A DNA stretch of 30,891 nucleotides from Legionella genomosp. 1 (GTDB lineage Bacteria > Pseudomonadota > Gammaproteobacteria > Legionellales > Legionellaceae), in the NCBI GenBank assembly GCA_945862275.1, contig CAMAYA010000001.1:1-30891 (forward strand). Reading direction: 5' to 3'. Positions 2,333 through 16,219 of this stretch are shown piece after piece. Numbering within the stretch: position 1 is the stretch's first letter; the number at the start of each line of letters is the position of its first letter. The notes beneath the pieces are model-generated. The model saw only the letters and a program-made list of their open reading frames with translations, ran no database searches and was not told the origin of the DNA. The position numbers and the translations under genes were made by a program.

Positions 2333-3578
2333 TCCATTCACGAAAAAGCAATTGCTGTTAGGCAGTCTGATTTGCTTGATTGCCGCATTGTTTTATTGTT
2401 ATGAATTTGTCTTGCGGATTATTCCTGGTGTTTTGCAGGCTGAGCTGAGCGCGGCATTTGGCCATATTTCTGCCTCAACCTTTGGCCAATTGTCTGCATT
2501 GTATTACTTTGCCTACTCGCCCATGCAATTGCCGGTCGGTATTTTGATGGACCGATTTGGTCCGCGCCGCTTGCTGTCGTTGGCTTGTTTTTGTTGTGCA
2601 ATTGGATCATTCATGTTTAGTTACTTTTCATCCATGTTGATTGCAGGTAGCGGTCGGTTTTTGGTGGGGTTTGGTTCGTCGTTTGCCTTTGTTGGTGTTT
2701 TATCGTTAGCCGTGCATTGGTTGCCTCGTCGGCATTTTTCGTTAGTAGCCGGATTAATGACAACGTTAGGTATGCTGGGGTTGGTTTATGGCGAAATGAA
2801 AATCACTGAAATGGCAGGATCATTAGGATTACACCCGGTGCTGCTGATGATGGTGGTGATTGGGTTCGTGCTGACGGTGTTGATTGCATTGGTCGTTCGT
2901 GACGGGCCTGGGGGGCTATCTGTAAAAGCATTGTCTTTGGCTGATTTTTACCGAAATATTGTACGTGTGTTGGTATCCCCTCAAGTCTGGTTGATAGCGT
3001 TTGTAGGGGCGTGTTTGTATACGTCTTTATCCGTGTTTGGGGAATTATGGGGAAAGTCATATCTTGAGCAAGCGCACCATTTAACGAAAATCGAGGCGGC
3101 TAAAACCATCTCGGCCATGTTTTTAGGGTGGGCCGTTGGTGCACCTTTAGCGGGTTATTTTTCAGATAGGACAGGTCGTCGTGTTCTTCCGTTAGTATTG
3201 GGCGCGTTTTGCGCGTTGGTGTGCATTAGTATTATTTTGTATTACCCTGACTTATCTTATACCGCATTGAATGTGTTGATGTTCTTGTATGGTTTGTTTA
3301 GTGCGACTGAAATCATTGTCTTTGTGATGGCAAAAGAAAACAGCGGGGTTGAATTATCGGGCACGGTGTTTGCTGCGGCCAACATGATAGTAACGTTAGG
3401 GGGGGTTATCTTCCAGCCATTGGTCGGTACGTTGCTGGATAAATTTAGCCGAGGTCAAGTGGTGAACGGCGCGCATATTTATTCTGTACTGGATTATCAA
3501 CTGGCCCTGTCTGTTCTTCCAGCGTGCCTTTTGTTGGTGATGTTGGCTTCTTTTTTCTTAAAAGAACGCACATCCTAA
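2313..3578 (+). CDS. MFS transporter (Pht-like, second of a tandem pair)
   Basis: GILMDRFGPRR and GYFSDRTGRR motifs; clear paralogue of the upstream gene (shared PMQLPVG-LMDRFGPRRLL, GRFLVG-GS-FAFVGVL, FQPLVG-LLD). Start is ATG 2313 or 2319. Confidence 0.9.
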   Translation: MRMQDASPFTKKQLLLGSLICLIAALFYCYEFVLRIIPGVLQAELSAAFGHISASTFGQLSALYYFAYSPMQLPVGILMDRFGPRRLLSLACFCCAIGSFMFSYFSSMLIAGSGRFLVGFGSSFAFVGVLSLAVHWLPRRHFSLVAGLMTTLGMLGLVYGEMKITEMAGSLGLHPVLLMMVVIGFVLTVLIALVVRDGPGGLSVKALSLADFYRNIVRVLVSPQVWLIAFVGACLYTSLSVFGELWGKSYLEQAHHLTKIEAAKTISAMFLGWAVGAPLAGYFSDRTGRRVLPLVLGAFCALVCISIILYYPDLSYTALNVLMFLYGLFSATEIIVFVMAKENSGVELSGTVFAAANMIVTLGGVIFQPLVGTLLDKFSRGQVVNGAHIYSVLDYQLALSVLPACLLLVMLASFFLKERTS

Positions 3579-4384
3579 CGAAAAATAGCCAATAATTCCG
3601 CGACCGGCAATCGGTTTTTGGAATGGCAGCTGATCAATCGTTTAACGCCAAAGGAGCGAATCTCCGCTCCTTCGTAAAGCGCCTGCGTAAACGCCGTATC
3701 ATGATTTGAAATGATCACGGTGATGCCACGCGATGCGGCATCTTTGGCCAAATGAGCCAGCATCTTGTGTTCTGATTCGCCGAATTTTTTGTGGGTGTAG
3801 GCTGAAAAATTGGACCCTTGTATCAAGGGTGAATAAGGTGGATCACAGTAAATAAGATCACCGGGTGTGGCGCTCAAAAATGTTTGTTGAAAGTCGCTGT
3901 GAACAAACGTAGCACAAAAGCTTTTGTTATAAAAAAAGCGCATCTCTTTTTCAGGAAAATAAGGTTTTATGTAACGGCCGAAAGGAACATTATAGATTCC
4001 TTGCTGGTTATAACGACACAAACCATTATAACCATGTCGATTTAAATATAAAAACAGGGCTGAACGCATTCGGGGATCCGCACATTGGTTGAATTGCTCG
4101 CGCAATTCATAATAGCGTTCCGATGCATTATTTAGTGGATTAAAAAACGATTTGCAATATGAAATAAATGATTCTTGTTGCACTTGTAATTGTTGAAACA
4201 ATCGGACTAAGTCTTTGTTCTCTTCTCCCAACAAATAGGCTGGGTAGGCTGTACTGTGAAAGACCGCGCCAGATCCTGTAAAGGGCTCAATCAGGCGGTT
4301 TGCAGCAGGGAAGGCATTCAACAGATGATGACGGCAGTTGTATTTGTTTCCTGCCCACTTTAGGAACGGTTTTATCTTGAAGAT
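3575..4384 (-). CDS. dam: Dam-family DNA adenine methyltransferase, with no canonical start codon upstream of its conserved N-terminus
   Basis: LIEPFTGSGAVF (SAM-binding), FLYLNRHGYNGLCRYN and catalytic DPPY. The frame extends upstream of the ORF-track start as IFKIKPFLKWAGNKY to an in-frame TAA at 4397-4399. Start placed tentatively at ATC 4384; ATA 4375 is the alternative. Confidence 0.9.
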   Translation of the reverse strand: MFKIKPFLKWAGNKYNCRHHLLNAFPAANRLIEPFTGSGAVFHSTAYPAYLLGEENKDLVRLFQQLQVQQESFISYCKSFFNPLNNASERYYELREQFNQCADPRMRSALFLYLNRHGYNGLCRYNQQGIYNVPFGRYIKPYFPEKEMRFFYNKSFCATFVHSDFQQTFLSATPGDLIYCDPPYSPLIQGSNFSAYTHKKFGESEHKMLAHLAKDAASRGITVIISNHDTAFTQALYEGAEIRSFGVKRLISCHSKNRLPVAELLAIFR

Positions 4385-4451
4385 CCTAGCGGTTTTTTAT
4401 GAGCGAAGTATCGCTTATTTGACTTGAAAAAACCAGTGACCCAGGGTCGAT

Positions 4452-4961
4452 TTAACCACTTGAACCGGACGTTAACTTTTTCTTCCTCATTATTTGTGGT
4501 GTTTTAAACAGCATGAAACTTGTTCCCAGCAGAGCTCCCAGTATTGAACCGGCACCTGGCAATTTTAAACTCCCAATGATAGCCCCTAAGCTCATCCCCA
4601 TCGATACCTCAAGGCTAACCCACAAAGCGTCTAATAAAACGTTAACTACATTATCTGGAGAAAGGTTTGGTGCCATGTTGGTTTTTTTATTGATTTTATG
4701 AATCGTAACCATGCTAATCATTACGCCACCTAAAGCGGAACCGATAACAAGGCCAATCAGGGCTCCTGCTACCATTTCTATATGAAAATTAAAGGGGGGA
4801 AATACAAGTTCGTTGTATAACTTATATGAATAAGCGATACATCCACCAGAAAAAAAGCCAACAGCACTTCCAGTGCCCCCTCCAACCAGGGCCCCAACAA
4901 CAGCGGCCACATATATATTAGGGTTGGTGATAACCTGGTGAATATGTTTTAACAAGTTCAT
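4452..4961 (-). CDS. Hypothetical glycine-rich membrane protein (glycine-zipper-like helices)
   Basis: 169-aa ATG ORF with repeated GxxxG hydrophobic stretches (VGALVGGGTGSAVG, AGALIGLVIGSALGG, GAGSILGALLG); no recognisable catalytic motif. Confidence 0.65.
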   Translation of the reverse strand: MNLLKHIHQVITNPNIYVAAVVGALVGGGTGSAVGFFSGGCIAYSYKLYNELVFPPFNFHIEMVAGALIGLVIGSALGGVMISMVTIHKINKKTNMAPNLSPDNVVNVLLDALWVSLEVSMGMSLGAIIGSLKLPGAGSILGALLGTSFMLFKTPQIMRKKKLTSGSSG

Positions 4962-5095: not shown

Positions 5096-5884
5096 GTGTT
5101 TGAAATGATGAAATCCCAATTAAACATTATTCACGTCACGTGGATTCAAATACAAATTTTTCTAGTATTAACTGGGTTGCCTGTGTTTATATTTTTAGAT
5201 AGCCCATGGCTCGCAGCACATTTATTACATGGACAAGATATATGCGATGTTATTGCAGTTATTTTTTATTGTGTGATTTTGGTTAACGCTAAAGACCGGT
5301 TATATTGGTTAATGCTAGTGGTGCCTATTGTTAGTTTATGTGCCGAGATAATAGGCTCATCAATATTGGAGTTGTACGCATACCGGCTACACAATATCCC
5401 TGTGTATATACCCGTGGCGCATGCTATTGCATATGCCACGGTCTATCTTATTAGCAAACAACCTTTGATTCAACACCATCACCGAGCAATAGAACAGTCT
5501 CTAAAGAAGCTTGCTTTTCTAGTTTGCGTTATGTCCTTATTGATCTTGAATGATGTCATGAGCTTTATTAGTTATGCTGTGTTTTTGATCATTATTTCCA
5601 GCAGGAAAAAATCTATCTTTTATTTGATTATGTTTTTCATGGTGTATTATATAGAGTTTTTGGGTACGGTTTTTTCAACCTGGGCATACTACAGTGTTCT
5701 TGGAAATCATCCCAACTACCCTACCATAAGCCGTACCCCATCGTGCATAGCAGCGGCATATATTCTTATTGACTTGGTTAGCAACTCGACATATTTCTAT
5801 GCTATAAAAAGCATTAAAAAGTTTAAGGCATTCTTTTTTAAATCTCAAACCCTTGGCCAATTGAGAACAGCCCTGGGGCATTGA
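5096..5884 (+). CDS. Hypothetical polytopic membrane protein with two Glu-containing half-repeats
   Basis: About 7 hydrophobic segments; repeats AEIIGSSILELYAYRLHNIP and IEFLGTVFSTWAYYSVLGNHP. SD AAGGA 7 nt before an in-frame GTG at 5096; ATG 5105 is the alternative. Confidence 0.7.
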   Translation: MFEMMKSQLNIIHVTWIQIQIFLVLTGLPVFIFLDSPWLAAHLLHGQDICDVIAVIFYCVILVNAKDRLYWLMLVVPIVSLCAEIIGSSILELYAYRLHNIPVYIPVAHAIAYATVYLISKQPLIQHHHRAIEQSLKKLAFLVCVMSLLILNDVMSFISYAVFLIIISSRKKSIFYLIMFFMVYYIEFLGTVFSTWAYYSVLGNHPNYPTISRTPSCIAAAYILIDLVSNSTYFYAIKSIKKFKAFFFKSQTLGQLRTALGH

Positions 5885-5937
5885 CATTGATTTGTACCCA
5901 GCTTAGCATTCGCCTATTATTTATTTGTGGAAACGTG

Positions 5938-6906
5938 ATGGAAATCGATCATTTGCTCGCAATCGTGAGTGAAGATTTTGAAGCGGTTAATGCTCTAATC
6001 ATCAAAAAAATTCAATCTCCTGTCCGTTTGATAGATGACATAGCAAATCATGTGATACAAAGTGGCGGCAAACGATTACGACCTCTATTGGTTCTTCTGG
6101 CGAGCCGTGCCTGTAACTATAAGGGCAAAGATCACATTTTATTAGCGGCAATGATTGAGTTTTTTCATACTGCCACGTTATTACATGACGATGTAATTGA
6201 TGAATCGGCGCTGCGCCGCGGTCGTGAAACGGCCAATCAAATATGGGGTAACAAGGCCAGTATTTTGGTGGGTGATTATTTGTTTACCCAATACTTGCAA
6301 CTGATGGTCGATGTAGGTGACATCGATATCATCCAGCTCCTAATCGGCATTGCACCCCAAATGGGTTGTGGTGAAATCCAGCAGTTTTCCAATATTCATA
6401 ATACGGCCCTCACAATAGACGAGTATTTTAATGTCATTCGTGCAAAGACATCGCTGCTATTCGCTGCGTCCAGCACGATTGGTGCACTCATCAGCAAAGC
6501 GGGAGACGCAACACAAAAGGGTTTGTATGCATACGGATTGCATTTGGGCAATGCATTTCAACTGATAGATGATGCATTGGATTATTGTTCAGACTCTAAA
6601 ACCATCGGTAAAAATATCGGTGATGATTTGGCGGGCGGAAAAGTGACGCTGCCTTTATTGCATGCTTTAAAATACGGTACAAAGGCACAGCACTTAAAAA
6701 TAAAAGAAACTATAGAGCAAGGTTCGCTTCGCTATTTACCTGCGGTACTAGAAGCACTGGCAGAAACGAAAGCGATTGAATATACTCATAGCATTGCTGC
6801 TGCAGAAGTAGATTCGGCTCTTTCTGCATTGCAAGTCTTGCCAGATTCGATATATAAAAATGCACTGGCCGAGCTGGCTCAATATTCGATTCAGCGCAGC
6901 TATTAA
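5938..6906 (+). CDS. Trans-polyprenyl diphosphate synthase (IspB/octaprenyl-PP synthase-like)
   Basis: GGKRLRP, first Asp-rich motif LHDDVIDESALRRG, KT motif, second motif FQLIDDALD, GDDLAGGKVTLP. ATG 5938 (MEIDHLL) fits the usual family length better than TTG 5881. Confidence 0.92.
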   Translation: MEIDHLLAIVSEDFEAVNALIIKKIQSPVRLIDDIANHVIQSGGKRLRPLLVLLASRACNYKGKDHILLAAMIEFFHTATLLHDDVIDESALRRGRETANQIWGNKASILVGDYLFTQYLQLMVDVGDIDIIQLLIGIAPQMGCGEIQQFSNIHNTALTIDEYFNVIRAKTSLLFAASSTIGALISKAGDATQKGLYAYGLHLGNAFQLIDDALDYCSDSKTIGKNIGDDLAGGKVTLPLLHALKYGTKAQHLKIKETIEQGSLRYLPAVLEALAETKAIEYTHSIAAAEVDSALSALQVLPDSIYKNALAELAQYSIQRSY

Positions 6907-6937
6907 TTGAGATCTTAAGCCATATTAGGAGGCTTTA

Positions 6938-7198
6938 ATGGAAGCATCAAAAATAAATCCAGTTGCATTGGGAATCACATTAGGCGCTCTAATAGGAGTA
7001 TCTATATTTACCCTTGGGATATTAATACATCTTTTTTTAGCAGGAATACCCATTGCTCTGGCAGTCGGAGGCCTCTACATCACGTATAATCCCTCGTATT
7101 TAGGAAGTTTTATTTGTGGTGGCTTTGGTTTGATTGGTGGAGCCATTGCTGGGTATATATTTTCCAGGCTTTATAATATTTTAATCGACGTGGTATAA
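6938..7198 (+). CDS. Small two-helix membrane protein resembling the family often auto-annotated as 'bacteriophage holin'
   Basis: 86 aa, strong SD AGGAGG, pattern INPVALG..LG...YNPS..GS...G..G....GY.F..LYN. Family resemblance is from memory only. Confidence 0.6.
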   Translation: MEASKINPVALGITLGALIGVSIFTLGILIHLFLAGIPIALAVGGLYITYNPSYLGSFICGGFGLIGGAIAGYIFSRLYNILIDVV

Positions 7199-7200
7199 AG

Positions 7201-9306
7201 ATGGATGAGCTAGATAAACTGCTGAAGCCTTCTTGGGGAACGGAAAAATGGATCCTTGAAGGGTGGAATAAAATCACCCATGATGAAAAAATGACTATCA
7301 ACGTTCGAGTGAAGGACTTATTTAAAGATGGCCTTCCTTTTGTGGTAGAACACGACAAGTTGCTTTATATATATGTATTTTCTTTGATGGCGCAACTGGA
7401 GGTTTTGGGCATTCAATTGCCGCTGCGATTTGAAGATAAAATGCAAAATCCAGTATTTAAAAAACGGATGCGCGCTCAATTAGTGGATGAGATTTTTCAT
7501 GCCATCGTGTTTACTAAAGTCGCCTTTTTATTATGTGCCCCATACGACTCACCCCCTGCTTATACTGAACAGATTGACAGGCTCTGCCAGTTTTTTCGAT
7601 CGCAAGATTGCATTAAAGTATCCATGGTGGTCATGAACTTAGTGTGCGAGGGATTGGTTGAAGAGGTTTTCTCGACGTTACACAAGCAAAATATTGCGCC
7701 AGAATTGTTTGCAATGATAATGGAAGACGAGCATCGTCATGTTTGTGAAGCGGATTTGTATGCTGCATTGGGACTACCCGACCGAACTGTATTGGCCGAG
7801 GCACTTCTCTCGTTAGAGGAACTTCTCATTGCGGCATTTACCTTCCAGCCAAAATATACCATAGCACTCAGCGCATTGTTAGGCCCGCAGGGAACCGCTG
7901 CCTTTATTGTATCGATTCATGAAAAATACACACAGCAGCTCAAAAAAATAAACATGGTTCCTAGTGAGAAATGGGAAATCTTTTTTTCTGTAGCCCCTAA
8001 TGTTTATGCCGAGATCGAACCTTATTCCGAGGAATTGAATACAGAGGCCAACCTGGAGATCTATGAAGTTGAAATGACGCCGACCAGAAAAGCCCTGATG
8101 ACGCAGTTGAGTGTTCCGGGCGACCCAACCATGGTTGCTCAATTTAACATGGATATCAGTGATTTTTGTTTTTTTGAAGAAAAATATCCTAGCGATACGT
8201 TGACTGTCTTGATGATGCAGTCTGTTAGCCGCGTATTGGAATCTCATGCATCTTTTCGTCATTTTATAAGCTATAAAAAACTGTACATAAGCCGAGGGGC
8301 TTATGTATCCGTGGTGGAAAAATTACCTGATTGTGGAGATCATATCGGTACTGTTTCTTTTAAAGATTGCCATGAAATGACCACCCAAGAGCTCTCGATC
8401 AAAATCAAGCGCGCCGTGCAAATGATGGTATATTGTTTCAAAAAACGTGAACAAATTGAAAAAGAGCACCCAGAACTGAAGCGTCGTTTAGACGACATGC
8501 TCTATGATTCTGCACACGATATATATCCTTGCCCCACTCCAGGAAGCCATGGGGTTTATTTAAGCAATCTTGGGTTGTACGGCTACACACAAGCGATATC
8601 TCCTCTACTAAAGCAAACCGGCTTGCATATTTTATTACTAGCAGTCGAGCGAAAACCCGTTTGGAATAATGCCACGCAGTCGTTTGTAGCAAAAGACTTA
8701 TTACCGGTTTCTATTAGTGCAGACAATCGCATTTTTGACGGTATGTTGCCTATTCCTGACTTGCTAAACAAGGCATTTCAAACGGCATTTCAGGAGATGA
8801 AAGAGCGAATCGAAGATCCGTTAATGGATAAAGAAACAACAGAAAGCAACCGTTATAGAAAAAGAATTGACCAAATAGCTGACGAAATGCTTGCCAAAAG
8901 GGATAGTGCTAAAGGCGGGTTAATAATCGCTCACCTTATTAATAAAAACAAAAATGCGGCGTTCAAAGAAGTGAGAAGGGTATTCGGAGATGATTTACAG
9001 GTCTATGGTGAACCATTAACCATGCATTCTGATTATAAAAATATTGCTGATAACCTGTTACTTGATTATTTGGGATTTAATGCAGACGAGGCTGCGAGAG
9101 ACGCTAATTTCACAAAAATAGTGGATAAAATGCTATCTGAAAACCTAGAGTTGGGGTATCGCGTGTTGGCCGGCTTGCAAAACGTATGGGTTGATTACAT
9201 TGATATTGAAACCGTATTTAACTCGGCTTATAAAAAAATAGCCGGCTCACGGCTGGGCCGATTGGCCCCGCTTATTCCTAACATTGTGCGACGCGAATTA
9301 AGCTGA
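7201..9306 (+). CDS. Fusion protein: ferritin-like di-iron domain + 2-oxoacid dehydrogenase E2-type acyltransferase catalytic domain + helical C-terminal extension
   Basis: Di-iron ligand pattern E67, D96-E97-x-x-H100, E150, D176-E177-x-x-H180. E2-like motifs MTPTRKAL, YLSNLGLYG, VERKPVW and ISADNRIFDG (canonical DHRxxDG). No lipoyl domain. Confidence 0.8.
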   Translation: MDELDKLLKPSWGTEKWILEGWNKITHDEKMTINVRVKDLFKDGLPFVVEHDKLLYIYVFSLMAQLEVLGIQLPLRFEDKMQNPVFKKRMRAQLVDEIFHAIVFTKVAFLLCAPYDSPPAYTEQIDRLCQFFRSQDCIKVSMVVMNLVCEGLVEEVFSTLHKQNIAPELFAMIMEDEHRHVCEADLYAALGLPDRTVLAEALLSLEELLIAAFTFQPKYTIALSALLGPQGTAAFIVSIHEKYTQQLKKINMVPSEKWEIFFSVAPNVYAEIEPYSEELNTEANLEIYEVEMTPTRKALMTQLSVPGDPTMVAQFNMDISDFCFFEEKYPSDTLTVLMMQSVSRVLESHASFRHFISYKKLYISRGAYVSVVEKLPDCGDHIGTVSFKDCHEMTTQELSIKIKRAVQMMVYCFKKREQIEKEHPELKRRLDDMLYDSAHDIYPCPTPGSHGVYLSNLGLYGYTQAISPLLKQTGLHILLLAVERKPVWNNATQSFVAKDLLPVSISADNRIFDGMLPIPDLLNKAFQTAFQEMKERIEDPLMDKETTESNRYRKRIDQIADEMLAKRDSAKGGLIIAHLINKNKNAAFKEVRRVFGDDLQVYGEPLTMHSDYKNIADNLLLDYLGFNADEAARDANFTKIVDKMLSENLELGYRVLAGLQNVWVDYIDIETVFNSAYKKIAGSRLGRLAPLIPNIVRRELS

Positions 9307-9310
9307 GCCT

Positions 9311-9943
9311 CTATTGTTTCATGCCATCACTGCGTGGAGCGATTTGTTTTGGGGGCGAGGGCGCATCGACCCATTGTATTTCTATCCGGCGGTTGAACGC
9401 ACTGCCATGAATCAGTTGGTTATCGGCAATAGGGTGTCGGTCTCCAAATCCCTCGCCCTTTAGGCGTTTGGCACGAATGTCATTTGCCCAAAGAAACGTG
9501 AGCATGGTTTCCGCTTGTGCGTCTGAGAGTTGTTTTTTACGGAAACGTGGGCCTACATTATCTGTAAATGCGGCTACATAAATGTCGCTACAGGGATATA
9601 AATTTAACAGCTTCACGATGTTGTTAAGGCCTTCATAACAAATGTCATTTAATAGCGGGCTATTGAATTCAAAATAATGATCAGTCGGCACGATGAGTGT
9701 AACCGTGTCCCCGTACCGAACATACTCGATGTCATTTTTATTGAGATCTCTAATAATCGACTCAAGGCCAACGCCAACACCGACATAGCCACCCACAGCA
9801 CCTGCAGTCCGTTTTAATGGGTGTGCTTGGGGTCTGAAATCATTGAATGGAGGATGAAAATGAGCCTTATTTGTGCAACCAAGGAGCATCAAGGAAAGTA
9901 GACCCACAAAGGTCATATGGCGAGCATACAGTTTCATTGGCAT
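9311..9943 (-). CDS. cmpA: OmpA-family lipoprotein, Legionella CmpA-like
   Basis: Lipobox LLGC; OmpA C-terminal domain (AFTDNVG, LSDAQA, GEGFGDRHPIADN, NRRIEI); YGDTVTLIVPTDHYF and ICYEGLNN match my recollection of CmpA. SD AGGAG at 9949-9953 favours ATG 9943; 9946 and 9937 are possible. Confidence 0.8.
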   Translation of the reverse strand: MPMKLYARHMTFVGLLSLMLLGCTNKAHFHPPFNDFRPQAHPLKRTAGAVGGYVGVGVGLESIIRDLNKNDIEYVRYGDTVTLIVPTDHYFEFNSPLLNDICYEGLNNIVKLLNLYPCSDIYVAAFTDNVGPRFRKKQLSDAQAETMLTFLWANDIRAKRLKGEGFGDRHPIADNQLIHGSAFNRRIEIQWVDAPSPPKQIAPRSDGMKQ

Positions 9944-13034: not shown

Positions 13035-14696
13035 GTGGCGAATGCTCCGACAATAAAAGCACCGACAGGCACAACCCTTCATGCTAAATCATGGTTAACA
13101 GAAGCCCCTTTAAGAATGCTGATGAATAACCTGGATCCAGATGTGGCTGAGCACCCGGAGACGTTGGTGGTGTATGGTGGTATTGGCAAGGCGGCTCGAA
13201 ATTGGGCGTGTTACGAGCAAATCATTGCTTCGTTGAAATCGTTGGAAGACGATGAAACCTTGTTGATTCAATCCGGAAAACCCGTGGGCATTTTTAAAAC
13301 CCACAGGGATGCGCCGCGGGTATTAATTGCTAATTCTAATCTGGTTCCGCATTGGGCCACCTGGACGCATTTTCATGCGCTAGATAAAGCGGGCTTGATG
13401 ATGTACGGGCAAATGACGGCAGGCTCGTGGATCTATATTGGTACACAAGGGATTGTACAAGGCACCTATGAAACCTTTATGGAAATGGGGCGCCAACATT
13501 ATGCGGGTGATCTATCAGGTAAATGGATTTTAACGGCAGGTTTGGGCGGGATGGGAGGTGCGCAACCTCTGGCGGCCGTCATGGCGGGTGCCTGCATGTT
13601 GGCCATTGATTGCGATGAAACGCGACTCGATTTTCGGTTAAAAACCCATTATCTGGATTATAAATCGACGAACTTGAATGAGGCCTTGCAGTTGATTCAA
13701 CAAGCATGCCTTGTCAAAAAGGCCATTTCAGTGGGACTCTTGGGCAATGCTGCAGAATTATTGCCTGAATTGGTTTTACGCGGTATCCGGCCTGATGCAG
13801 TGACGGATCAAACCAGCGCACATGATCCACTCAATGGGTATTTGCCCATTGGCTGGACCATGGAATATGCGCATCAACAACGCATTGAAAATCCAGAATT
13901 AGTAATAAAAAAAGCGAAAGAGTCGATGGCGGTTCACGTGAAGGCTCTGTTGCATTTTCATCAACAAGGGATCCCAACATTTGATTATGGCAATAATATT
14001 CGTCAAATGGCCTTGGAGGAAGGTGTTACCCATGCCTTCGATTTCCCAGGCTTTGTGCCCGCTTATATTAGACCATTATTTTGTGAAGGCATCGGGCCTT
14101 TTCGATGGGTCGCGTTATCGGGTGATCCAGATGATATTTATAAAACCGATGAAATGGTGAAGGCATTATTGCCTGACAATATACGCGTACACCGTTGGTT
14201 GGATGAGGCACGAAAAAAGATTGATTTTCAAGGCTTGCCCGCTAGAATTTGTTGGCTTGGATTAGGTGATCGGGCCAAAATAGGACTGGCGTTTAATGAG
14301 ATGGTGAAGACGGGTGAACTCAAGGCGCCGATTGTAATCGGTCGGGATCATTTAGACGCAGGTTCTGTGGCCAGTCCCAATCGCGAGACAGAGGCGATGC
14401 AAGATGGATCGGATGCTGTGTCGGATTGGCCCTTGCTGAATGCCTTGTTAAATACAGCCAGTGGTGCCACCTGGGTCAGCTTGCATCATGGCGGTGGTGT
14501 GGGCATGGGGTTTTCTCAGCATGCGGGCATGGTGATTGTTGCGGATGGAACCATCGATGCGGCCGCTAGGCTGCAACGGGTTTTAACCAATGATCCAGCC
14601 ACTGGTGTGATGCGTCATGCGGATGCGGGATATCAGCGTGCCATTGATTGCGCGAAAGAACGTCATCTTAAACTGCCGATGCTGGGAGAGAAGTGA
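13035..14696 (+). CDS. hutU: Urocanate hydratase
   Basis: [60 protein letters not shown]; GTG start after SD AAAGGA. Confidence 0.97.
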
Positions 14697-16219
14697 TGTT
14701 TGAATTAAATCCTGGCGAATTGACATTGCACGATATCAGCATGCTATTAAATACCAATACACCCATTCAATTAGCGGCCAGTGCAGATGATAAGATTGAC
14801 GCGGCATACCGTGTGGTTCAAATAATCGCAGGCCAAGAAAAATCAGTCTATGGGATTAATACGGGTTTTGGATTGTTGGCACACACGAAAATCGCTCAAG
14901 AGGATTTGAAAGATCTTCAGCGACGCATCGTACTATCTCATGCAGCGGGCGTTGGTGCACCGTTGGATGATGACACAGTGAAGCTCATTCTATTATTGAA
15001 AATAAACAGCCTGTCACGGGGGTATTCCGGCGTATCCAGATCCTTGATTGATCAGTTGATTGCTGTGTATAACGCGGAAATTTATCCTGTCATTCCGGAC
15101 CAGGGATCGGTTGGCGCATCGGGTGATCTGGCACCGCTGGCGCATCTAGCCATGGTCTTGATTTGAGAAGGGGAGGCGTGCTTGCAAGGCGAGCGCCTGA
15201 GCGCGACCGTTGCATTGTCGCGTAGCCGCATCAAGCCGATTGCGTTAGGTGAAAAAGAAGGGCTTGCGTTATTAAACGGCACGCAAGTGTCCACGGCCAT
15301 TGCAATAATAGGACTACTGAAAACCCAGCGAAATTTTGCCATTGGCACGATAGCCGGTGCGCTGAGCTTGGACGCCGCGGCGGCAAGCCTTAAACCGTTT
15401 AGCGCTTTGATTGCGAGTGTTAAGAATAACCATGGACAGGTTTTATTTTCAGCTTTGATTGAACATTTATTGCGTGGGAGTGCAATTCAGCGTGACCATG
15501 AGCGATGCATGCGAGTGCAAGATCCTTATTCCTTGCGTTGCCAGCCGCAAGTAATGGGCGCTGTGTGGTCCTATTTGCAGGATAGCCAAACGCATTTAAT
15601 GAATGAAGCGAATGCTGTTTCTGATAATCCTTTGATTTGTATTGAAACAGGGGAGGCGATTTCAGGCGGGAATTTTCATGCAGAAATCACGGCGTTTAGT
15701 GCGGATTTATTGGCCATCATTGGTTCGGAAATCGGAGCGATATCAGAACGTCGGATCGCATTGTTGATGGACAGCCACCTCAGTGGATTGCCGCCATTTT
15801 TAGTGAACAACTCAGGCCTGAATTCAGGCTTTATGCTAGCACAAGTGACAGCAGCGGCCCTTGCGAGTGAAAACAAAACCTATGCACATCCGGCGTCTGT
15901 AGACAGCTTGCCGACTTCGGCCAATCAAGAAGATCACGTGAGCATGGCGACCTTTGCTGGGGTAAAATTAAACAAAGTAGCGGATAATGTCTTGCATATT
16001 TTAACGATTGAAACGCTAGCAGCCTGCCAAGGCATCGATTTCAGAGTGCCACTTCATACTTCACCTGCTATGCAGTGCTATGTTGATGCCGTGCGCGCCA
16101 AAGTACCGTTTTATCACGAAGACCGTTATTTTGGGCATGATCTGTCTGAAGCCCACTCCCTCATTCGTCAATACACGTATTATGGTGCGGTTTATGAGCA
16201 ATTATTCCATGCCATATGA
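14696..16219 (+). pseudogene. hutH: Histidine ammonia-lyase interrupted by an in-frame TGA at 15164-15166
   Basis: ORFs 14693-15166 and 15182-16219 are in the same frame and joined give 507 codons. [11 protein letters not shown]-forming [29 protein letters not shown] and SANQEDHVSM are all present. The stop replaces the Gly of the conserved L-x-G-E-G-E motif (LI*EGEA). Confidence 0.9.

Follow-up and report, generated by a model that had tools for sequence, protein, structure and literature searches.

Four plus-strand genes, here called A, B, C and D, occupy positions 5096-9306 of a 30,891-nucleotide stretch of Legionella genomosp. 1 DNA (contig CAMAYA010000001.1, hereafter the window), where a first-pass annotation made from the sequence alone had placed an undescribed isoprenoid/lipid-modification operon. 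B proved to be a second, paralogous polyprenyl-diphosphate synthase gene, ispB2, and D encodes a di-iron domain fused to an acyltransferase-like domain, whose loss of the catalytic histidine (His) coincides exactly with the presence of an ispB2 partner in our genome sample. We propose, with confidence just short of even, that the core of the locus is a unit of ispB2 and His-less D in which a dedicated polyprenyl pool would be oxidized by D, and that this unit lies within an imported modular block. The window stems from a Legionellaceae metagenome-assembled genome (MAG) of 1.29 Mb, 76% complete, and its DNA was found again in lake-water and freshwater metagenomes. The comparative sample consisted of 149 Legionellaceae genomes, all of which except G133 and G140 were scored in the family scans.

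IspB2 and its di-iron partner

The two genes of the proposed core unit and the domains of D are as follows, E2 being the acyltransferase subunit of 2-oxoacid dehydrogenase complexes, CAT chloramphenicol acetyltransferase, and pLDDT the predicted local distance difference test of the structural model.

5938-6906, plus strand: gene B (ispB2), second long-chain trans-polyprenyl diphosphate synthase
7201-9306, plus strand: gene D, whole gene, di-iron domain and E2/CAT-fold domain
7201-7998, plus strand: D residues 1-266, ferritin-like di-iron carboxylate domain, pLDDT mostly 83-93
8101-8814, plus strand: D residues 301-538, E2/CAT-fold acyltransferase-like domain, PF00198 at E 4.9e-6
8821-9096, plus strand: D residues 541-632, long-form-specific insertion, helical, pLDDT 44-58
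9097-9306, plus strand: D residues 633-701, conserved C-terminal helical tail common to short forms, plus the stop codon

B had been read as a polyprenyl diphosphate synthase, and it matches PF00348 (E 2.1e-72) and can be aligned end to end with Escherichia coli IspB (PDB 3WJK/5ZE6; E 1e-87). Its best NCBIfam match is the octaprenyl diphosphate synthase model NF008140, with 334.1 bits against a cut-off of 412. Judged from these profiles, B belongs to the IspB-type family, and the octaprenyl equivalog name is not earned. Both DDxxD motifs (DDVID and DDALD) are kept in B, as in each of the 14 ispB2 copies, and Ala79 of B, placed by gap-free alignment to 5ze6_A, lies at the fifth position ahead of the first of them. 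We take a small residue at this position (A79 in E. coli IspB) to be a signature of long-chain synthases. The retained motifs indicate that IspB2, a paralogue of the ubiquinone-tail synthase, has kept an intact catalytic site.

Unlike E. coli IspB, B is a second copy, belongs to a clade of its own and is tied to gene D. The housekeeping IspB of the same genome, 68% identical to B, is encoded on contig C25 next to thiamine genes. Nearly all genomes of the sample carry one ispB copy and 14 carry two, the extra copy adjoining D in 13 of these 14. In a tree of 52 sequences, the 14 D-adjacent copies form a single clade nested within Legionellaceae IspB, with a Shimodaira-Hasegawa-like approximate likelihood-ratio test (SH-aLRT) support of 99; the C25 copy clusters with housekeeping copies of the same genus (99), and the other copies follow genus relationships. 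B is therefore a dedicated paralogue, for which we use the name IspB2. Contamination of the MAG is an unlikely source of the two ispB copies, since the genes flanking the block in the window cluster with the same genus as the C25 copy does. IspB2 differs from housekeeping IspB at nine positions, eight of which fall within residues 105-142, aligned around E. coli M123/M135, a stretch that presumably forms the floor of the chain-elongation tunnel. An altered product length of IspB2 is plausible from the sequence.

The fusion in D that the first-pass annotation had described is borne out by a structural model, built with 46 homologues (pLDDT 80 overall), in which a ferritin-like bundle is followed by an E2/CAT fold. 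The best matches of the bundle (residues 25-266) are the aldehyde-deformylating-oxygenase-like (ADO-like) chains 5ux2_B (Z 18.2, root-mean-square deviation 3.2, 203 residues aligned) and 5uwz_A (Z 16.9); further di-iron matches include MMOH, R2lox and RNR R2, with Z of 14-18 across the ADO-like, MMOH and R2lox chains. The ligand set E67, E97xxH100, E154 and E177xxH180 is nearly invariant in the 46 homologues (E67 in 42/46, E97 in 46/46, H100 in 44/46, E154 in 43/46, E177 and H180 each in 46/46). The likeness to the cyanobacterial aldehyde-deformylating oxygenase is at the level of the fold only, PF11266 matching 0/46 members at E<=1, and the Pfam di-iron models returned only weak PF00268 matches, in 7/46. 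The COQ7 model PF03232 does not detect D either, and a role for D as a COQ7 substitute was rejected, since COQ7 is encoded in 143 of the 149 genomes, this one included.

The second domain of D superimposes on 7b9k_A (Z 18.7, root-mean-square deviation 3.0, 191 residues aligned), and its catalytic His is replaced by Asn509 (8725-8727), the motif reading SADNRIFDG where His-retaining forms have SADHRIFDG. Of the 149 genomes, 79 encode a D homologue, and no homologues were found outside the Legionellaceae in the searches made. The majority of the homologues are about 600 residues long and keep DHRxxDG; the long forms measure 667-716 residues, with 67-103 residues at the insertion site where short forms have 7-16. 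We considered and rejected the idea that the C-terminal tail of the long forms is a fused downstream open reading frame (ORF), as the tail of short forms is the same one, read in an unchanged frame, and the insertion of the long forms is internal. His is absent from 22 of the 25 long forms in the homologue alignment. Across the 13 ispB2-adjacent D genes its place is taken by T, G, N, N, G, G, S, N, S, C, V, I and N, and nine residues in all (N/G/S/A/C/T/I/L/V) occupy position 509 of His-less D when the alignment and the genome sample are taken together. His-less D sequences form one bipartition (SH-aLRT 100), which argues for a single loss of His followed by drift at position 509, the di-iron ligands remaining fixed. 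The E2/CAT domain of His-less D would thus, on sequence grounds, no longer transfer acyl groups by the canonical mechanism, and the acylation step suggested by the first-pass annotation is unlikely here, the E2-type catalytic His being Asn at a position that drifts across the clade.

The association of D with isoprenoid genes was examined across the family. All 13 sampled genomes with a His-less D have ispB2 next to it, and G038, which bears the sole sampled long D that keeps His, has neither ispB2 nor A. The two genes are adjacent and co-directional in 10/10 long-D loci examined, from at least seven GTDB genera, with differing flanks otherwise; in the closest relative, whose D is 70% identical, the order is reversed, D preceding ispB2 beside an enolase gene. 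Moreover, in five genomes belonging to three genera, a His-retaining D of a divergent clade (33-37% identity) is immediately followed by a squalene-synthase-like gene. The product of this gene matches PF00494 (E 1.8e-16) and keeps DxxED, and it scores 80 bits against the NCBIfam squalene synthase model, far below the cut-off. With ispB2 as partner in one clade and a squalene-synthase-like gene in a separate one, D is tied twice to enzymes of the class-I isoprenoid synthase fold. A complex prediction for D(25-701) with IspB2 gave a score of 0.00, which speaks neither for nor against binding.

Reduced and decayed forms of D were also encountered. The di-iron domain occurs alone (about 300 residues) at the canonical Dam/permease locus of G119, G105 and G096 (L109 5839-6744; L110 6089-6964); it is named hypothetical in L. 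nagasakiensis, and the same three genomes bear A/g-2, the gene pair described below, elsewhere. At G142:C1:2917674-2919427, D is split into several pieces that lie in different frames, contains an internal stop and looks like a pseudogene. A second, weak COQ7-like match (29-31 bits) was seen inside ORFs of 237-314 codons in four genomes of one genus (G123:C2:2893775-2893996, G132:C2:585760-585999, G139:C22:67775-68008 and G142:C1:2449766-2450008), three of which also bear ispB2 and His-less D.

Membrane-protein genes and origin of the block

The remaining features of the block and its edges are listed below; g-2 lies beyond the span covered by the first-pass annotation.

4452-4961, minus strand: gene g-2, 169-residue Gly-zipper membrane protein, divergent to A
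5096-5884, plus strand: gene A, GTG start in the ORF; the database call begins at ATG 5105
5881-5909, plus strand: promoter-like site in the A-B gap region, TTGACA-17-TAGCAT, consensus match only
6938-7198, plus strand: gene C, 86-residue two-helix Gly-rich membrane protein; its stop lies 2 nucleotides ahead of the D start
9313-9343, plus strand: terminator-like hairpin directly after D, pattern match only

Recomputed coordinates reproduce the four co-directional genes with gaps of 53, 31 and 2 nucleotides. A pattern scan found no terminator-like site in these three gaps, and the frequency of promoter-like sites here is not above that in shuffled sequence. The hand counts of G+C offered for the AT-richness of parts of the block (17/60, 14/60 and 30/60) were exact. 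Over whole genes, AT-richness is clear for A (0.368) and C (0.379) only; D (0.415) and B (0.427) are not clearly below the window (0.452).

A is a polytopic membrane protein of about 260 residues with conserved D32, E81, N97, H106, D150, E184, N201, H202 and D223. It contains an internal two-fold repeat (residues 40-135 against 140-245, 28% identity, E 0.019), each half of which has conserved Asp, Glu, Asn and Pro. The paired Glu motifs previously noticed correspond to E81 and E184, which occupy equivalent positions of the repeat; both are invariant among 13 close homologues, and the wider family keeps E81 throughout and E184 with few exceptions. A itself matched no Pfam or NCBIfam family, and no Pfam family was detected on 12 homologues and 10 distant relatives; the relatives number 457, and no Pfam family was found among those scanned. 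The hidden Markov models (HMMs) PF04240 and PF05675 gave no match to A at E<=10 in a protein scan and a genome scan, and an AFDB fold search returned unnamed proteins and DUF1405.

The usual partner of A is g-2, which has a weak PF13488 match. In 10 of 11 loci the two genes stand head-to-head, with unrelated surroundings and frequently at a distance from D. They are so arranged also in the closest relative, where A/g-2 and D/ispB2 lie on separate contigs. A is present in 22 of the 149 genomes: 13 of the 14 with a long D (the exception being G038), every one of the three whose D is truncated, two whose D is short and four that lack D, which makes 9 of the 135 genomes that have no long D. Two convergent g-2-type Gly-zipper copies lie between the long D and A at L042 8483-9652 (G136).

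The C family, found in 83 of the 149 genomes, is mostly encoded elsewhere; extra copies stand beside D in several lineages, next to short and long forms alike. C reaches 50.7 bits against NF037947 (holin_4), whose cut-off is 70, and an identity as a holin was rejected on this score, on the chromosomal nature of the family and on the absence of a phage context, no phage genes being found near the block. C and g-2 were also compared as possible homologues and set apart, as they share only Gly-zipper low-complexity matches. Two C-like genes flank a short His-retaining D at L050 5742-8299 (G129) and L056 6352-8892 (G019), as well as in G095, and each of these three genomes has a third C-like copy elsewhere.

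The neighbourhood of the block points to a replacement event. In G114, of the same genus, the order is malic enzyme, two major facilitator superfamily genes, Dam, short D, an OmpA-like lipoprotein and Kup; the contigs of G031 and G107 stop at D and have the same upstream side as G114. Flanking proteins of these same-genus genomes are 70-93% identical to those of the window, whereas their D, short and His-retaining, is only 42-52% identical, and the window D is 65-70% identical to the long D of other genera. With flanks like those of the genus and a D nearer to other genera, the segment 4452-9306 most simply replaced a resident short D, and these comparisons suggest that the whole block entered the Dam-OmpA interval by import. 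Since A/g-2 and C are independently placed elsewhere, the array in the window is a local juxtaposition of A/g-2, ispB2-D and C. The synteny check put forward for a co-conserved four-gene operon accordingly came out negative: A partners g-2 in those 10 of 11 loci, C is mostly found elsewhere, and the closest relative keeps the parts on separate contigs. The isoprenoid assignment was supported for the B-D pair, given the IspB2 clade, the 13/13 adjacency with His-less D and the squalene-synthase-like partner, and was not supported for a four-gene unit.

Two features elsewhere in the window deserve mention. The Dam methyltransferase ORF (3575-4451) has a listed start at TTG 4321, and tblastn to relatives aligns from residue 1-4. 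The hutH gene (14693-16219) looks split into an ORF at 14693-15166, which spans only positions 1-148 of a 466-position aromatic-lyase profile, and a second ORF from 15182.

Proposed chemistry and competing explanations

In the mechanism that we consider most likely, IspB2 would make a dedicated long-chain all-trans polyprenyl diphosphate pool, and the soluble di-iron domain of D would hydroxylate or desaturate the polyprenyl chain itself or some lipid formed from it. As for the inactivated acyltransferase domain, it may serve as a lipid-binding or oligomerization scaffold; C may anchor D, and A/g-2, which co-occurs with ispB2-D, may use that lipid too, within the membrane. The reaction is probably an oxidation, at the di-iron site, of a long-chain polyprenyl lipid, with no acyl group transferred. 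A more specific form of the proposal, which we put forward only tentatively, is that His-less D and IspB2, together with A/g-2, make a so far unseen lipid in a subset of Legionellaceae, namely an oxidized long-chain polyprenyl compound or a tail-modified ubiquinone, with the E2-fold domain as a non-catalytic polyprenyl-binding scaffold.

Several observations weigh against a polyprenyl-oxidizing unit. Because the His-less clade has a single origin, the 13/13 adjacency does not represent 13 independent events. In most D-bearing genomes, those with the short form, D lacks an isoprenoid gene as neighbour, and the structural neighbours of the di-iron domain use fatty aldehydes, CoA thioesters and hydrocarbons, not known polyprenyl substrates. 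A showed no sequence-level tie to isoprenoid enzymes in HMM scans and hhalign comparisons, and no isoprenoid genes were found near distant A homologues in five neighbourhoods outside the Legionellaceae. Finally, no UbiA-type prenyltransferase was seen to co-vary with ispB2 in the genome sample, a result that bears equally on the explanation considered next.

It is unlikely, in our estimate, that the pair serves to diversify ubiquinone tails, with IspB2 supplying a second tail length and D helping, as an accessory protein, to handle lipids in the quinone pathway. The derivation of IspB2 from the Legionellaceae ubiquinone-tail synthase with all catalytic motifs kept, and its clade-specific changes in the tunnel region, would fit such a role. 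Legionella ubiquinones are moreover unusually long, and Q-12/Q-13 mixtures have been reported (PMC8528123, PMC10975825); the length of a quinone tail is not predictable from the sequence of the synthase, and no enzymes are known for the modification of the tail (PMC13386864). Nevertheless, COQ7 and housekeeping IspB are present regardless of ispB2, no extra UbiA tracks it, and the need for a conserved di-iron centre is left unexplained. That D acts instead on substrates of the acyl-CoA or fatty-acid type, its linkage to ispB2 reflecting co-mobilization in a variable island, seems to us quite unlikely. In its favour, the nearest structural matches of D are CoA-dependent E2/CAT domains and di-iron proteins of the ADO-like, PaaAC, BoxB and acyl-ACP-desaturase-like kinds, and the short-form D is in most cases a solitary gene with Dam on one side and two Trp/Tyr permeases on the other. 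Co-mobilization alone is difficult to reconcile with an ispB2-D adjacency kept in at least seven GTDB genera, in differing contexts and both orders, with the exact coincidence of His loss and ispB2 in the sample, and with the independent squalene-synthase-like partner of another D clade.

The operon proposed by the first-pass annotation, in which B would build the chain, A and C modify it in the membrane and D oxidize and acylate it, is improbable. It draws on the co-directional genes, their short gaps without a terminator-like site and the co-occurrence of A with His-less D; it is contradicted by the pairing of A with g-2, usually distant from D, by the promoter-like site between A and B, by the loss of the His needed for acyl transfer and by the location of most C genes elsewhere. 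Lastly, it is very improbable that these intracellular bacteria translocate D to act on the host and that its neighbours are incidental. The restriction of the D family to Legionellaceae in all searches, the variable island and the long, poorly ordered C-terminal region of D would suit a translocated protein, yet no effector-type domain or signal turned up, in analyses none of which was aimed at one, and the close link of D with a cytoplasmic synthase of the housekeeping type and with a small membrane protein is in keeping with a role in bacterial metabolism.

Relation to known systems and significance

Each part of the block can be assigned to a known superfamily, and the locus as a whole would serve isoprenoid tailoring and bring a prenyl synthase of its own. 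The E2/CAT domain of D shares its fold with E2 and chloramphenicol acetyltransferase (Z 16-18.7), and the SxSxDxRxxDG region is recognizable. Unlike these enzymes, D has no lipoyl or peripheral-subunit-binding domain detectable by Pfam, its His is variable, it is fused to a di-iron domain, and a 92-residue insertion follows. With soluble ferritin-like oxidases (ADO-like 5UX2/5UWZ, R2lox, PaaAC, BoxB, MMOH and RNR R2) D has in common the four-helix bundle and the E/ExxH/E/ExxH ligand pattern; it differs from them by its fusion to an E2-fold domain, which has no counterpart among the matches found. COQ7, the hydroxylase of ubiquinone biosynthesis, is also of the ferritin-like di-iron type and has a polyprenylated lipid as its substrate; it offers a functional analogy for D only.

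Gene A recalls CruF/Caroten_synth (PF04240), DUF817 (PF05675) and DUF2878 proteins, being similar in size, polytopic and endowed with paired acidic motifs of the type E-x-x-G/S ... W/Y-x-Y. In the Atlas comparison it reached a feature score of 0.94 and a template-modelling (TM) score of 0.81 to a cluster with 15% DUF817 members, against TM scores of 0.45-0.58 to Caroten_synth and DUF2878 clusters. Aligned by hhalign with five DUF817 proteins, its motifs line up, at a statistically weak probability of 0.9% and E of 0.06. The earlier remark that no named pathway fits the gene set is upheld: none covers A or the di-iron domain, nor does any Pfam family. Likewise, we found no description in the searchable literature of the di-iron/E2-fold fusion, of its His-less derivative or of its obligate pairing with an IspB paralogue.

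Public annotation calls members of the D family "2-oxo acid dehydrogenase subunit E2" or hypothetical. Should the ispB2-D pair prove to be merely co-mobilized, the outcome would be an annotation correction, the former name being a misnomer for this family. Otherwise, D would exemplify an enzyme fusion that changes role, the His of its acyltransferase domain being lost exactly where a synthase partner is gained. An IspB paralogue locked to a di-iron enzyme restricted to the Legionellaceae is a genetically tractable candidate for the making of a lineage-specific isoprenoid lipid, and the ispB2-D pair is borne by G123, the genome of our sample identified as the named species L. quinlivanii.

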